Source of the DNA: a virus
Lineage: Duplodnaviria; Heunggongvirae; Uroviricota; Caudoviricetes
IMG/VR virus record: IMGVR_UViG_2648501235_000001
Location: 1 to 33,554 of that record
Reading direction: 5' to 3' (one strand)
Length of the DNA stretch: 33,554 nucleotides
Position 1 is the stretch's first letter; every line of letters starts with the position of its first letter. Position numbers and translations under genes: made by a program. The notes beneath the pieces are model-generated. The model searched no databases. It saw only the letters and a program-made list of their open reading frames with translations, and was not told the DNA's origin. Shown in pieces: positions 1,557 through 18,706 of the stretch.

Positions 1557-1868
1557 TTATTCGATGCGCACTCCTGGTATTTCGCCTTTTGATATTGCTA
1601 AGTCATAAATTTGCGCGGCACTATACCCATCTCGCATCCATGAATCTAAGGCGCGAACAGCCTCGCTACGCTTTTTATCTTCTCTCTCATTTTTGATATC
1701 AACGAGGACATCAACGCAATTAAGGCAAATGTGGATTTTGTCCTTACATTCGATCATGGCGGCTTTGCCATGATTTCCGCCACACAGTGAGCATAAATCT
1801 TCAGGGGCTGGCTGGTATTTCTGTAACGTTAGAGGGTTGAATGTTGAACAGGCCATAATCATCTCCAT
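1557..1868 (-). CDS. Hypothetical early-left protein with Cys-rich (CxxC...HxCxxC) zinc-ribbon-like motifs
   Basis: 103-aa ORF with ATG at 1868; GGAG lies upstream of the third in-frame ATG (1856), so the true start may be there. Co-oriented in the pL operon. Confidence 0.5.
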   Translation of the reverse strand: MEMIMACSTFNPLTLQKYQPAPEDLCSLCGGNHGKAAMIECKDKIHICLNCVDVLVDIKNEREDKKRSEAVRALDSWMRDGYSAAQIYDLAISKGEIPGVRIE

Positions 1869-2049
1869 AAAACAAAACTCGCCGTAGCGAGTTCAGATAA
1901 AAGAAATCCCCGCGAGTGCGAGGATAGTTATTCATTGTCGATATTTACATTTATTTCGAATATCTTTACTGGGTAATCGCCAAAGTCATATGTTTTTTAT
2001 TCTGTTTTATAAGCACTACCAAGTACTGCTTATTACAAATAAGAAAAGG

Positions 2050-2081
2050 CTGAAAAAATATTTAAGGCCACAACTGTGGCC
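2050..2081 (-). terminator. Candidate intrinsic terminator (minus strand) downstream of the 2092-2790 gene
   Basis: Hairpin GGCCAC-AACT-GTGGCC (2066-2081) followed on the minus strand by a U-rich run (A-run 2052-2059 on plus). Confidence 0.4.
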
Positions 2082-2091
2082 CTAAATTTAC

Positions 2092-2790
2092 TTACGGCAC
2101 TGCGTTAATCAGATTACAAATACCTCTTTTGGCAGGGTCTGAATTCAACTTCTGAAAATTGGCGTTCAACATAGCCGTGTGTAAGTGATTCTCAACCTCA
2201 AAGAATAAGTCGATTTTGCCCTCTTTGGCTGCCTGTTTCTTCCAAATATTCACTTGGTCATCAGCAATACGACTGGCGCAAGTGAACAAGAACGAACTGC
2301 CTCTAGGAATGGATGTCGTGCTGTAATACTCACCATCTACTTCTACATATTTAGCTCGGAATGACTCTAAGGTTAGCTCATTGCCGTTCTTGACCGACTT
2401 AGCTTCTGCCTTACTTGTTTCTTCCTGCTCTTCAGAATGTTTCTGCGCCGACGTGGGTATGTCATTGGCCGCTGTTACGCTGACTGAACTCCCCAAACCT
2501 TTGAGGCCATTAATTTGGATAAGATAAGCCAGCTCCAGAGCCTTATTATCAGTGAGTTTTCCACGCATATTTACCCACTGACGTTGAACCATTTTTAGGG
2601 TGTCTGCGTTCTCTGGGTTTCCTTTGAGGGCACTAGAATAGGCAGAGCTAAGCTGTTCGTCTAATTTTGACAGACGTTCGTTATCGCAGATTTTATGTTC
2701 GATTGCTGTCGAAGCCTTTTGGCAGTCAAAGCTGGCTGCAAATGCACCCGGCGATGCCACTAACAATGATGCCAGTAGGATATTTTTCAT
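2092..2790 (-). CDS. Secreted protein with signal peptide and N-terminal LprI/DUF1311-like (lysozyme-inhibitor-type) motif; cargo (moron) gene
   Basis: ATG at 2790 with GGAG 7 nt upstream. N-terminus MKNILLASLLVASPGAFAASF (signal peptide, AFA-A cleavage) then FDCQKASTAIEHKICDNERLSKLDEQLSSAY, which matches the DUF1311/LprI signature from memory. The six-frame ORF extends to 2817 but lacks an SD there. Confidence 0.6.
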   Translation of the reverse strand: MKNILLASLLVASPGAFAASFDCQKASTAIEHKICDNERLSKLDEQLSSAYSSALKGNPENADTLKMVQRQWVNMRGKLTDNKALELAYLIQINGLKGLGSSVSVTAANDIPTSAQKHSEEQEETSKAEAKSVKNGNELTLESFRAKYVEVDGEYYSTTSIPRGSSFLFTCASRIADDQVNIWKKQAAKEGKIDLFFEVENHLHTAMLNANFQKLNSDPAKRGICNLINAVP

Positions 2791-2920
2791 ATTCACTCCA
2801 TAAATACAAAAGCGCATTACTATAGCACTTAACCGATCGCTTATCTCGCCCGTTCGTCATTCTTATCTAACCAGAACATGCGACTGCCACAGCACATGTC
2901 GAGGATTGCTGCATGTCCAG

Positions 2921-3358
2921 TCACTGGTTGCCTCCTTTGCGAAGCTGGGCGGCTAACTCATCACATATGTGCGTCAAAGAGCAAAGTTTGATTGATGGGT
3001 GTTCGCGCATCATCTCAACCCCCTGCGCCCGCACTTCAGACAGGAAAGAGTCGGTGGCTGGGGTTTCAACACGGATGCTGTCGCGCAAGATGAAAAATGC
3101 ATTGAGCATTCCAGTCTCTGGCACTTCATCCTGATGCTTCTCATACTCATCAAGAGCCTTCATCATCTCTGCTCCGAATGGTTGAGGGTGCACAGACTTC
3201 AGCTCCGCATTCTCCGCCGCCAGCGCCGCGCACTTGGCCTCCGCTTCAGCAAATTTGCGTACCAGATATTCAGCATTTGTTTCGTTAACCTTTAAATCAC
3301 ATGGGATGCATTTACCTTTCAGAAATCCATCCATCTCAATTAGTGTCATTCGTTTCAT
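2921..3358 (-). CDS. Hypothetical early-left protein
   Basis: Six-frame ORF 2921-3376 begins with GTG at 3376; first ATG at 3358 ([12 protein letters not shown]...) has GGAG/GGGAAG upstream and abuts the stop of the upstream small ORF. No recognisable family. Confidence 0.45.
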
Positions 3359-3519
3359 TTCTTCCCACTCCGCCACATCGCATTCAGATATTTGTTTTGA
3401 TTCACTGACGGAGAAGAATTTCTCTTAAGCAATTCCTCTCTCGATGGCATTGGCTTTACGCGTTGGCGAATAATCATTTCTGCCGGAAGAATGCCGGGAT
3501 TGTATGCAAGTCCTCTCAT
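3355..3519 (-). CDS. Small hypothetical protein (54 aa)
   Basis: ATG at 3519 preceded by GAGGAA about 7 nt upstream, 11 nt after the stop of the 3530-3826 gene. The longer six-frame ORF (to 3672) overlaps the upstream gene and is less likely. Confidence 0.3.
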
Positions 3520-3529
3520 GGTAAATTCC

Positions 3530-3826
3530 TCAGTCATTACTGATAGCGCCATAGCGTGAGCGGTAATTACGCAGGCGCGGGTCGATATATTCAGGGACGT
3601 GGGTATATGTGGCTTTGCGGAATGGTCGGATTGATGTCTGGTAAATTCGCTCGCGTTCTTCTTTCTCTGCAAGCCATATACAGTGGCGAAATTCCTTTTC
3701 CTCTTTCGTTTCCTGCGGTAGAGACATTATTCGATCGTAGTTTTTTCTGAATTTATCCAGCACCTCCGATACGGAATTGCCGGAACAGCGGCGCGGGTCA
3801 TCCGCACCATACAGAGGCGCTGGCAT
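3530..3826 (-). CDS. Hypothetical early-left protein (98 aa)
   Basis: ATG at 3826 with AGGAG 6 nt upstream, 13 nt downstream of the ssb stop; co-oriented in the pL operon. Confidence 0.5.
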
Positions 3827-3839
3827 GATTTTCTCCTGA

Positions 3840-4346
3840 TTAAATTGCGTGAATAGCGTGACGAGGGAAGGGGAGAGTTACTGGTGCAAAGGGTATATCG
3901 TCGTCAAAATCCATCGGAGGTTCGTTGTGTTGTGCTGGTGATGATTGCTGCTGTGGCTTCTGTGATTGCCTGCTGGCTGCTTGTTGTTTGCTGTCGCCAA
4001 TGCCGCCAAGCATTTGCATCACGCCATTAATTCCGACATGAACCTCGGTTGTGTAACGGTCTTGCCCTGACTGGTCTTTCCACTTTCTGGTTCTCAGCAT
4101 TCCCTCGAAATAAATCTGATCACCTTTTTTCACATACTGCCCCACGACCTCAGCCAGTTTCCCGGATACAGCAACACGATGCCATTCAGTCAATTCCTTT
4201 TGCTCGCCAGTATTTTTATCTCGCCATTGTTCTGACGTGGCTATTGTCAGATTAGCGAACGCTGTTCCTGATGGTGAGTATCGAACTTCCGGGTCTTGTC
4301 CTACCCGACCAAGGATAATCACCTTATTTACGCCTCTGCTTGCCAT
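3840..4346 (-). CDS. ssb: Single-stranded DNA-binding protein (SSB), with 15-residue extension after the conserved DDDIPF tail
   Basis: [23 protein letters not shown]...TEWHRVAV...QDRYTTEV...[11 protein letters not shown] closely matches E. coli SSB (OB fold and acidic tip). Translation continues [15 protein letters not shown] before TAA at 3840-3842. Confidence 0.9.
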
Positions 4347-5054
4347 TTATGCCGCCTGTTTTAGTTCGTTAACTCTGATGTTCATTACCTGAACGCATTT
4401 AGCCTGCGCCTCCTCGTTGCCAGCCATTAATTGCCAGTCACGCTGATAACGCTCGATGAGTTTTTTCTTGTCAGTTTCTGTTGATGCATAATCGCTGAAG
4501 TCTTTCAGGATTTGTTCGCAGTCAACCGATGGAGATTTCTGGTTGGTATTTTCTGGTGATGGTTTGTTATCTGATGCTGGGATTGCCCATCCCGGCAGCG
4601 ATGGAGGGAGCCAGTAAAATCCTGTTCCATCCTTCAGTTTTGCCCTGTGCCACCCCTGCTTTTTATCGAGAGATGTTTGTGCGAAACCTTCCTCAAGGTT
4701 ATACAGATACCGACCGATTCCCCACTGAACGGCAGCGCGCTTCATTGCGCCGGAACGACCACCTTTGACGGCTTCTACCTGCGTGTTTTCAGCAGCATCC
4801 CATTTGGTTACCCATTCGGAATCAATCCTGATTGATATGCCGCATTCAACGCCTCCGTTGTTGGGAATATCGCGGTATTCATTGCGCCATCCTGCTTTGC
4901 CGCAAACATCGTCCAGGCGTTTCATGATTGCCCTGTTCGTGACATAAGCCAGCACCATAGCCCACACCTTGCCATCGCGTGTTTTACCGCTTTGCTGTAT
5001 TCTCCATTCTATATCTTCAGGGCTGAATGGCTCATCGAATTTATTCAAATCCAT
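4347..5054 (-). CDS. Putative phage single-strand annealing protein (Rad52/Erf-like class, tentative) forming a module with ssb
   Basis: 235 aa, ATG at 5054 with GAGGTG SD; its stop abuts the ssb start (4346/4347), a typical SSAP-SSB arrangement. Family inferred from position and general resemblance only; it is clearly not RecT or lambda Bet by sequence. Confidence 0.55.
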   Translation of the reverse strand: MDLNKFDEPFSPEDIEWRIQQSGKTRDGKVWAMVLAYVTNRAIMKRLDDVCGKAGWRNEYRDIPNNGGVECGISIRIDSEWVTKWDAAENTQVEAVKGGRSGAMKRAAVQWGIGRYLYNLEEGFAQTSLDKKQGWHRAKLKDGTGFYWLPPSLPGWAIPASDNKPSPENTNQKSPSVDCEQILKDFSDYASTETDKKKLIERYQRDWQLMAGNEEAQAKCVQVMNIRVNELKQAA

Positions 5055-5541: not shown

Positions 5542-5910
5542 TCAGGCGGCCTTGATAGTCATATCATCTGAATCAAATATTCCTGATGTATCGATATCGG
5601 TAATTCTTATTCCTTCGCTACCATCCATTGGAGGCCATCCTTCCTGACCATTTCCATCATTCCAGTCGAACTCACACACAACACCATATGCATTTAAGTC
5701 GCTTGAAATTGCTATAAGCAGAGCATGTTGCGCCAGCATGATTAATACAGCATTTAATACAGAGCCGTGTTTATTGAGTCGGTATTCAGAGTCTGACCAG
5801 AAATTATTAATCTGGTGAAGTTTTTCCTCTGTCATTAAGTCATGGTCGATTTCAATTTCTATTGATGCTTTCCAGTCGTAATCAATGATGTATTTTTTGA
5901 TGTTTGACAT
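5542..5910 (-). CDS. Acidic hypothetical protein (122 aa), paralog of the 6090-6413 product
   Basis: ATG at 5910 with GAGGAT SD. D/E-rich; shares EGWPPMDGSEG / SGWEPSMPDGEGW and a ...KAA C-terminus with the neighbour. Confidence 0.55.
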   Translation of the reverse strand: MSNIKKYIIDYDWKASIEIEIDHDLMTEEKLHQINNFWSDSEYRLNKHGSVLNAVLIMLAQHALLIAISSDLNAYGVVCEFDWNDGNGQEGWPPMDGSEGIRITDIDTSGIFDSDDMTIKAA

Positions 5911-17529: not shown

Positions 17530-17745
17530 ATGTACCAGATGGAAAAAATCACAACAGGTGTGTCATACACCACGTCAGCGGTGGGGACGGGATACTGGCT
17601 ACTGCAGTTGCTGGACAAAGTCTCCCCATCCCAGTGGGTGGCAATAGGCGTATTGGGTAGCCTGGTGTTTGGCTTGCTGACGTATCTGACAAACCTTTAT
17701 TTCAAGATTAAAGAAGATAAGCGTAAGGCTGCGAGAGGTGAATAA
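17530..17745 (+). CDS. S: Class II holin (pinholin), phage 21 S type, with dual-start motif
   Basis: [71 protein letters not shown] parallels phage 21 S as recalled; ATGs at 17530 and 17539; GGAG SD. The six-frame ORF start at 17485 is GTG. Confidence 0.85.
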
Positions 17746-18242
17746 TGTCGCCATCATTACGCAGGGCTGTTGCTGCTGCTATTGGTGGTGGGGCTGTTGC
17801 CATAGCGTCTGTGCTCATCACTGGTCCGAGTGGTGACGATGGCCTGGAAGGTGTCAGCTACATACCATACGAAGATATCGTTGGCGTATGGACTGTATGT
17901 CACGGACACACCGGAAAAGACATCATTCCCGGTAAAACGTATACCGAAGCAGAATGCAAAGCCCTCCTGAATAAAGACCTTGCCATGGTCGCCAGACAAA
18001 TTAACCCGTACATCAAAGTCGATATACCGGAAACAACGCGCGGCGCTCTTTACTCGCTCGTTTACAACGTGGGCGCTGGTAATTTCAGAACATCGACGCT
18101 TCTTCGCAAAATAAACCAGGGTGATATCAAAGGCGCATGTGACCAGCTACGTCGCTGGACATACGCTGGCGGTAAGCAATGGAAAGGGCTGATGACCCGT
18201 CGTGATATTGAGCGTGAAGTCTGTTTGTGGGGGCAGCAATGA
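17745..18242 (+). CDS. R: SAR endolysin (signal-anchor-release lysozyme), phage 21 R type
   Basis: N-terminal SAR domain [22 protein letters not shown] followed by a lysozyme domain ([23 protein letters not shown]...); start overlaps the holin stop (TAATG). Confidence 0.9.
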
Positions 18243-18706
18243 GCAGGGTAACCGCGATTATCTCCGCTCTGGTTATTTGCATCATCCTCTGCCTGTCATG
18301 GGCTGTTAATCATTACCGTGATAACGCCATCGCCTACAAAGAGCAGCGTGATAAAAAAGTCAGTGAGCTGAAGCAGGCGACCGCCACCATTACTGACATG
18401 CAGCAACGCCAGCGTGCTGCTGATGTACTCGATGCTAAATACACGAAGGAGTTGGCTGATGCGAAAGCTGAAAATGATGCTCTTCGGCGCAAGCTTGATA
18501 ATGGTGGTCGGGTGCTCGTCAAAGGAAAATGCTCTGTGCCATCCTCAGCCGAAACCTCCAGCGCCTCCGGCATGGGCAATGATGCCACCGTCGAACTCTC
18601 TCCAGTTGCTGGACGAAACGTTCTCGGTATCCGGGACGGAATTATCCGTGACCAAACAGCACTGAGAACGCTTCAGGAGTACATCAGGACGCAATGCCTG
18701 AAATAA
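18239..18706 (+). CDS. Rz: Spanin inner-membrane subunit Rz (i-spanin)
   Basis: [34 protein letters not shown]... (N-terminal TM plus coiled coil) parallels lambda Rz; ATG overlaps the R stop (ATGA). Confidence 0.85.
18459..18665 (+). CDS. Rz1: Spanin outer-membrane lipoprotein subunit Rz1 (o-spanin), embedded in the +1 frame of Rz
   Basis: [44 protein letters not shown]...: lipobox VVGC and Pro-rich mature region as in lambda Rz1; AAGGAG SD 8 nt upstream. Confidence 0.75.

Follow-up and report, generated by a model that had tools for sequence, protein, structure and literature searches.

We analysed a gene in the early left region of a lambdoid, P22/Sf6-like E. coli prophage. The window, i.e., the whole stretch of DNA under study, is 33,554 nucleotides long (IMG/VR record IMGVR_UViG_2648501235_000001, positions 1 to 33,554; Caudoviricetes), and the gene, at 2092-2790 on the minus strand, is the sole real gene of the interval 2050-2920. 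Its product is identical to WP_000789829.1 of E. coli, which the NCBI Prokaryotic Genome Annotation Pipeline (PGAP) names "lysozyme inhibitor LprI family protein." An earlier interpretation, made from the letters of the DNA and referred to here as the sequence-only reading, had seen a secreted DUF1311/LprI-like protein in a self-contained cargo cassette and had proposed a periplasmic lysozyme inhibitor unrelated to phage propagation. We find a two-domain protein, probably periplasmic, encoded by a module that is shared by unrelated phages; its candidate role, held tentatively, is to bind an incoming cell-wall hydrolase. The features of the gene are listed below. Two phages that carry close copies, the lambda-like ev099 and the unrelated 103-kb phage-plasmid SSU5, serve for comparison.

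2055-2859, minus: minimal exchanged module (promoter-like element, leader, ORF, terminator), 805 bp, delimited by blastn
2819-2827, minus: extended -10 promoter-like element TGCTATAGT; -10 hexamer at 2824-2819, -35 weak (GAGATA)
2799-2796, minus: Shine-Dalgarno sequence GGAG, 5 nt ahead of ATG 2790, unchanged in SSU5 and ev099
2092-2790, minus: protein-coding open reading frame (ORF), 232 amino acids
2737-2790, minus: Sec-type signal peptide MKNILLASLLVASPGAFA, residues 1-18, read from the sequence; predicted cleavage after AFA
2491-2736, minus: N-terminal short DUF1311/PF07007 helical domain, approximately residues 19-100, with C23 and C35
2383-2490, minus: variable linker, approximately residues 101-136, predicted to be disordered (structure model, alignments)
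2095-2382, minus: C-terminal domain of approximately 95 amino acids, no known family; C171 invariant, C225 nearly so
2050-2087, minus: intrinsic terminator downstream of the stop codon; 12-pair stem 2087-2060, then ATTTTTT

Architecture of the protein

The frame and its Shine-Dalgarno sequence are as the sequence-only reading gave them, and the PGAP start of WP_000789829.1 corresponds to ATG 2790. A longer start at ATG 2817 was rejected: this codon is AGG in SSU5, although the segment from 2817 to ATG 2790 is otherwise identical, and it also lies upstream of the likely transcript start. Two short overlapping ORFs (2726-2860, minus; 2667-2825, plus) were judged to be chance ORFs within the gene and its leader.

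The signal peptide noted earlier also has the expected features: one basic residue, a core that is hydrophobic, and A-x-A just ahead of ASFDC, the conserved start of the mature protein. In alignments the signal part is divergent among relatives, and all of them resume at A-[SG]-F-D-C. No lipobox was found in the protein; at the junction of SPGAFA and ASFDC, the S-F-D ahead of C23 departs from L-[AS]-[GA]-C, and the AFA/A site is consistent with signal peptidase I. Among the relatives C23, C35, and C171 are invariant and C225 is nearly so, which fits an oxidising compartment. These features suggest that the product is secreted and that it is a soluble periplasmic protein rather than a lipoprotein.

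The N-terminal domain belongs to DUF1311/LprI, as the sequence-only reading had recognised, with a marginal match to the PF07007 (LprI) profile (E = 2.1e-5; 25.3 bits against a gathering cutoff of 22). Among 83 sampled relatives of this domain, 78 are PF07007 proteins (best E 4e-29). Judged by these matches, it is a short variant of the PF07007 domain. Typical PF07007 proteins have a second cysteine pair, which the window protein does not, and they lack its extra C-terminal domain. The first two cysteines, C23 and C35, remain and the later two have been lost together; the pairing in the family is therefore likely to be C1-C2 and C3-C4. An NCBIfam search with the protein returned nothing but sub-threshold noise. 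Over nearly its full length it matches PHROG 4675, a family of unknown function (E = 3.5e-94; residues 1-231 against positions 1-234 of 235), while PHROGs 14799 and 33858 match only residues 1-135 and 3-130, respectively.

For the structure we used an AlphaFold2 (AF2) run that included distant two-domain relatives, with a mean predicted local distance difference test score (pLDDT) of 78; with 13 close homologs only, the pLDDT was 53. In the model the N-terminal domain is helical over mature residues 1-82 (pLDDT 77-92), and its fold corresponds to the helical bundle of two DUF1311 structures, 3GI7 (Pseudomonas putida PP0307) and 6AR7 (Burkholderia thailandensis). The linker (mature residues 84-118) has pLDDT below 50 and is prone to insertions and deletions in the alignments. 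In the C-terminal domain the model has one short helix, a beta hairpin, and three further helices; pLDDT is 85-95 to approximately residue 218 and drops to 77 and then 56 over the last 14 or so residues. A Foldseek search against the PDB gave no match at E <= 0.001, and no significant PDB sequence emerged when the query was the single protein, the profile of the family, or that of the C-domain.

What is the C-terminal domain? It has no Pfam match in the window protein, and in eight relatives there were only single-member, chance-level matches (best E = 0.03). The idea that it is a diverged second copy of DUF1311 was rejected (hhalign probability 0.2%). A search of a large protein set with the C-domain profile recovered only fragments of the same two-domain family, with no other architectures. 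The model thus describes a confidently predicted domain, apparently disulfide-bearing, without known relatives. Comparison of the window with SSU5 (dS = 0.64) gives a ratio of nonsynonymous to synonymous substitution rates (dN/dS) of 0.10 for the N-terminal domain, 0.56 for the linker, and 0.07 for the C-terminal domain; because of the low values on either side of the linker, we consider both domains to be under strong constraint.

The exchanged module and its surroundings

The motif TGnTATAGT is kept in the window, ev099, and SSU5, and over the approximately 45 nt from this motif to the ATG just three positions differ; the coding sequence is less conserved (overall identity 83.5%). A generic promoter scan, which requires two good hexamers, made no call here. 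Because of this and of the weak -35, we infer promoter activity rather than assign it. At the other end of the gene, the terminator-like hairpin that the sequence-only reading had placed at 2066-2081 proves to be the G+C core of the longer, 12-pair stem. The hairpin has a folding energy of -17.6 kcal/mol (z = -4.0), and none of 200 shuffled sequences was as stable; in SSU5 the stem is kept and the loop is changed.

Pairwise blastn comparisons define the borders of the module. SSU5 has exactly 2055-2859 in common with the window, at 83.5% identity, and neither flank. The shared block in ev099 is longer (1858-3061, 98.8%). Sf6 and Stx2_EH2086 have the same flanks as the window and are without the cassette, with breaks at 1934 and 3371 in Sf6 and at 1986 and 3245 in Stx2_EH2086. 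Between the breaks Sf6 has Lar-like and Ea22-like genes and gene 22, while the Stx2_EH2086 record is unannotated there; other cargo thus occupies this slot in related phages. The module includes 69 nt upstream of the ATG. Several marks of a moron are present here: presence or absence in collinear genomes, sharing between unrelated ones, and a terminator of its own. Since the mosaic boundaries go together with a conserved promoter-like element and a terminator, the earlier description as a self-contained cargo cassette is upheld, and as far as sequence can tell the cassette is autonomous and horizontally exchanged.

Of 5426 complete E. coli genomes, 125 (about 2%) contain the 805-bp module, whereas a 2-kb query that includes the flanks has matches in 2908. 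There are 126 copies of the module, 109 chromosomal and 17 on plasmids; by record, identity is at least 95% in 108 and 80-90% in 17 (one listed example is a 114-kb plasmid). Judging by the 11 matches listed, the PGAP name is carried by the 124 near-full-length E. coli copies, and ev099 gp35 and SSU5_101 bear the same name.

The gene order also agrees with the early left location given by the sequence-only reading. The neighbours, in leftward order, and the lysis genes of the prophage, to which we return below, are as follows.

4347-5054, minus: Rad52-like recombinase, first in the leftward order
3840-4346, minus: single-stranded DNA-binding protein (SSB)
3530-3826, minus: Abc2 anti-RecBCD protein
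2921-3376, minus: 151-amino-acid ORF, upstream neighbour of 2092-2790
1557-1868, minus: 103-amino-acid CxxC...CxxC ORF, like Sf6 gene 19 and 933W L0063; no Pfam family
1248-1466, minus: Xis
197-1270, minus: lambda-type integrase, last in the leftward order
17745-18242, plus: prophage endolysin, GH24 (Phage_lysozyme, E = 1.6e-44), with a Gly/Ala-rich, weakly hydrophobic N-terminus typical of signal-anchor-release (SAR) endolysins
18227-18706: Rz, adjoining the endolysin

The C-terminal approximately 47 codons of the 151-amino-acid ORF fall within the part that ev099 shares with the window, and the annotation of the upstream gene in ev099 is Ea22-like. The 103-amino-acid ORF is a separate mosaic module, common to Sf6 and Stx phages, and two more terminator-like hairpins (1925-1906 and 1894-1875) precede it. 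In a closely related E. coli prophage (L001, 8828-9306), a 468-nt HNH endonuclease gene lies between the ssb and rad52-like genes. It looks like a homing-type insertion, because ssb and the rad52-like gene abut directly in the window (approximately 4330-4347). Further along the early left accessory region, 5542-5910 (minus) encodes a DUF2528 family protein (E = 5.3e-47) of unknown function.

Relatives in bacteria and phages

When 1.84 billion cluster representatives were searched exhaustively with HMMER, 2785 proteins scored at E <= 0.001. Nearly all of them match just the first 60-100 mature residues, often in tandem copies. The clusters with both domains, at 26-40% identity, are P0055, P0057, P0063, P0091, P0104, P0131, and P0169. 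One of these, P0091, is 28% identical and is cargo of an island that splits comM (L006, 1794-9378, on metagenome contig SRR33853397_277). The island also bears an EcoRV-type restriction-modification pair, a C-protein-like helix-turn-helix gene, and two serine recombinases. Among the PF07007 relatives, P0258 (L013, 3933-5780) divergently adjoins a gene with PG_binding_1 and a weak GH19 match.

By tblastn, 140 of 50,697 phage records contain a relative. Temperate phages account for only four of the 140, with two records for ev099 and two for SSU5. The remaining 136 are below 60% identity, and the matches listed are all from large genomes (51 from Aeromonas phages, RB49-like Krischvirus, and Klebsiella phages); T4-like taxonomy or gene content was verified for Aes508, RB49, and ZPAH1. 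In 37 records at least 80% of the query is covered, i.e., both domains. The Aes508 homolog, gp024, lies among early genes between gp56 and the primase gene gp61, and the ZPAH1 homolog lies between baseplate genes 8 and 9 in opposite orientation. These 136 further records, together with the early position in Aes508, argue against the claim of the sequence-only reading that the gene is unrelated to phage propagation, and we regard that claim as doubtful.

A different kind of relative is found in RB49. RB49p262 (L011, 3944-4702) has the same signal peptide, short DUF1311 domain, and acidic linker as the window protein, and its C-terminal domain is unrelated, beta-rich, and has its own cysteine pair. 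In T4-like phages the N-terminal module thus appears, from these sequences, to be combined with interchangeable C-terminal domains.

Candidate functions

Does "lysozyme inhibitor" follow from membership in the LprI family? The namesake, LprI of Mycobacterium tuberculosis (Rv1541c), has PF07007 and an extracytoplasmic location in common with the window protein. However, LprI is a lipoprotein that has, besides PF07007, an MliC domain (PF09864), to which lysozyme inhibition is attributed, and MliC has been shown to be sufficient for lysozyme resistance (PMC7933661). The window protein is not a lipoprotein by its sequence and has no MliC match at E <= 10. The same study states that there is "no experimental evidence" for the PF07007 domain in lysozyme inhibition (PMC7933661). 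The known inhibitors Ivy, MliC, PliC, PliG, as well as PliI, have beta-rich folds (PMC7677548), and no such fold was found in the AF2 model or by structure comparison. The function of lysozyme inhibitor is therefore not established for this gene and is partly contradicted. The premise of the sequence-only reading, that LprI family proteins are lysozyme inhibitors, is an over-generalisation, given the MliC domain of LprI and the negative result for Salmonella ScwA described below (PMC7933661).

Other PF07007 proteins suggest a different kind of role. In Pantoea and Salmonella, LprI-domain genes adjoin type VI secretion system (T6SS) effectors with lysozyme-like, LysM, or pesticin domains (PMC9796082, PMC8867033, bioRxiv 10.64898/2026.08.01.741415). 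The neighbour of P0258, with its PG_binding_1 and weak GH19 match, is in line with this. Etsi4 of E. coli O157, a DUF1311 protein that we liken to the others by its description, counters the toxicity that the cell-wall-targeting effector Etse4 has in the periplasm (PMC12981562). These T6SS immunity proteins are small and Sec-exported, as the window protein is by prediction; they are thought or shown to neutralise cell-wall hydrolases that act in the periplasm, and orphan copies of them circulate in accessory regions. They differ in that their genes adjoin the effector in T6SS islands and encode single-domain proteins (approximately 146 amino acids where stated), whereas the window gene is phage-borne and stands alone and its product has a second domain.

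A phage-encoded counterpart is Spackle of T4 (Sp, gp61.3). This helical, disulfide-bonded protein is made early, is exported by Sec to the periplasm, and inhibits the gp5 tail lysozyme selectively (PMC7677548). The window protein resembles it in being phage-encoded and, by prediction, Sec-exported, helical, and disulfide-bonded. Unlike the two-domain window protein, Spackle is single-domain, with a mature form of 75 amino acids, and the functional likeness is one of analogy. T4 sp lies in the early interval between gp56 and gp41, and Aes508 gp024 lies in the same interval. Over the first 50 kb of Aes508, tblastn detected no trace of Sp, and a crude heuristic picked out just three early ORFs with Sec-like signals: rI, a TM2 protein, and gp024. 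Among phage records, 927 contain a relative of Sp, and Aeromonas does not appear among the ten commonest names.

A separate observation concerns the other exclusion gene of T4, imm, which in T4 lies between gene 42 and gene 43. In Aes508 (L017, 17530-19185), gene 42 directly abuts a split, intein-containing gene 43 and no imm is annotated between them. Aes508 may therefore be without both known superinfection-exclusion genes of T4.

The explanation that we favour, tentatively, is as follows. The gene would encode a Sec-exported soluble periplasmic protein, in which a short helical PF07007 domain is joined by a flexible linker to a second, disulfide-bonded domain. Its module of promoter-like element, leader, ORF, and terminator travels among genomes that are otherwise unrelated: lambdoid prophages, SSU5-type phage-plasmids, virulent T4-like phages, and an integrative island. 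By binding stoichiometrically, the protein would neutralise an enzyme that acts in the periplasm, most probably an incoming peptidoglycan hydrolase of the muramidase type, for example a T6SS effector or a superinfecting phage's tail lysin. The outcome would be immunity or superinfection exclusion, analogous (not homologous) to the action of Spackle and analogous to that of the PF07007 immunity proteins. The analysis itself establishes the structure of the gene, the family and fold of its N-terminal domain, purifying selection on both domains, the mobility of the module, and its distribution among phages; export, promoter activity, target, and inhibitory mechanism are deductions. A protein that binds or inhibits an incoming cell-wall hydrolase in the periplasm is possible by this analogy, though we would stop short of calling it probable; protection against superinfecting phages, which the sequence-only reading also mentioned, is a live possibility. 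A bolder version would make the two-domain proteins a phage-specific superinfection-exclusion family in the periplasm, common to temperate phages, phage-plasmids, and virulent T4-like phages, which blocks the entry of competitors or lysis from without by acting on the tail hydrolase, takes the part of Spackle in Aeromonas phages without detectable Spackle by means of an unrelated fold, and owes its specificity to the C-terminal domain. We consider this version unlikely as it stands.

Several observations weigh against a hydrolase as the target, or against the likeness to Spackle. The PF07007 match, besides being marginal, is partial, aligning residues 23-78 with positions 1-70 of the 106 in the profile, and L and A stand where typical relatives have their second cysteine pair (RNxCxDxxC). 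PADLOC gave no match for the protein, and homology to Spackle was rejected (hhalign probability 6.9%, with the alignment limited to the signal peptide). The complementarity with Sp is suggestive, relying as it does on tblastn with a short, fast-evolving protein and on part of one genome. Deletion of ScwA, a periplasmic PF07007 protein of Salmonella, leaves lysozyme sensitivity unchanged (PMC7933661). We saw no conserved neighbouring gene that would indicate the target. The relative P0137 (L015, 2443-5609) overlaps the 3' end of an 853-amino-acid phospholipase-like/HemolysinCabind gene in an effector-immunity-like arrangement; because P0137 follows a phospholipase-like toxin gene, the link between PF07007 and muramidases is a tendency, not a rule. 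Moreover, PF07007 is fused to many unrelated modules (Ank, SH3, TPR, Sel1, CHAT, trypsin). Such varied fusions, together with the phospholipase-like neighbour, mean that PF07007 may serve as a general scaffold in the periplasm that is not firmly tied to peptidoglycan hydrolases. For the window protein, as for every two-domain relative, partner and activity are predictions by analogy.

The P0137 arrangement lends itself to the view that the protein binds some target other than a peptidoglycan hydrolase, conferring immunity to a phospholipase or colicin-like toxin or masking an envelope component needed for DNA entry. The joining of PF07007 to many protein-binding modules is in keeping with this, as are the C-terminal domain, which the phage-borne family alone has and which could determine specificity, and the relative that is cargo of the island with EcoRV-type restriction-modification. 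Nevertheless, the published functional data on PF07007 all concern cell-wall glycosidases, and we hold such a target to be unlikely. Could the protein act instead on resident enzymes, as ScwA does? ScwA (SL1344_0490) is, like the window protein, a soluble periplasmic PF07007 protein of an enterobacterium, and its disulfides are functionally important; it increases the amount of the lytic transglycosylase MltD, and its overproduction leads to lysis (PMC7933661). The window protein might then modulate host lytic transglycosylases or the prophage's own SAR endolysin, and with them the timing of lysis or envelope homeostasis. The GH24 lysozyme of this prophage, with its SAR-like N-terminus, would be exported before lysis, and T4-like phages have elaborate periplasmic lysis control. 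ScwA, however, is a chromosomally encoded protein of 275 amino acids with PF07007 at its C-terminus, and the cassette travels separately from lysis modules and is found in early or accessory regions. We saw it linked to no holin or endolysin gene; the RB49 relative is approximately 2.3 kb from gene t, with nine ORFs between. This makes a modulator of resident enzymes distinctly unlikely.

The original proposal, that the protein shields the envelope of the lysogen from animal lysozyme in the manner of LprI or MliC/PliC, has on its side the family name in Pfam and PGAP, the predicted secretion, the moron-like cassette with its own promoter-like element and terminator, and the occurrence of the gene in E. 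coli of animal and human hosts. The missing MliC domain and lipobox count against it, as do the absence of experimental support for PF07007 alone and the ScwA result (PMC7933661). Moreover, most phage-borne relatives belong to T4-like phages that are virulent and infect Aeromonas, Klebsiella, or E. coli, and such phages would gain nothing from this protection; a gene kept by virulent phages is therefore unlikely to serve mainly for lysogen protection. We judge this explanation to be improbable, more so than a ScwA-like modulator, and classical inhibition of animal c-type lysozyme is probably not what the protein does. That the ORF hitch-hikes or is decaying, with no current function, is very improbable. 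The gene is present in only a small fraction of E. coli genomes and is dispensable, related phages being without it; against this stand the strong purifying selection on both domains, the conserved regulatory flanks, and the intact two-domain relatives at 26-40% identity in distant phage groups.

Part of this was known: the gene is publicly annotated by its PGAP name and belongs to PHROG 4675. A literature search on LprI and prophages found nothing on this gene. What is new is modest: PF07007 occurs here as a short variant joined to a domain not described before, the family is distributed mainly among virulent T4-like phages, and a clean promoter-to-terminator module has been exchanged between unrelated phages. 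The name "lysozyme inhibitor LprI family protein" is widespread, also on RefSeq phage genes, and it should not be taken as a function, because PF07007 is without demonstrated anti-lysozyme activity and the part of LprI that is credited with it is absent here. The occurrence of relatives across many virulent T4-like phages points to conflict between phages, or over the cell wall, as a possible role. If the favoured explanation is true, the family would be a second, structurally unrelated solution to the task that Spackle performs in T4, and T6SS immunity proteins and phage superinfection exclusion would be joined through one domain family.

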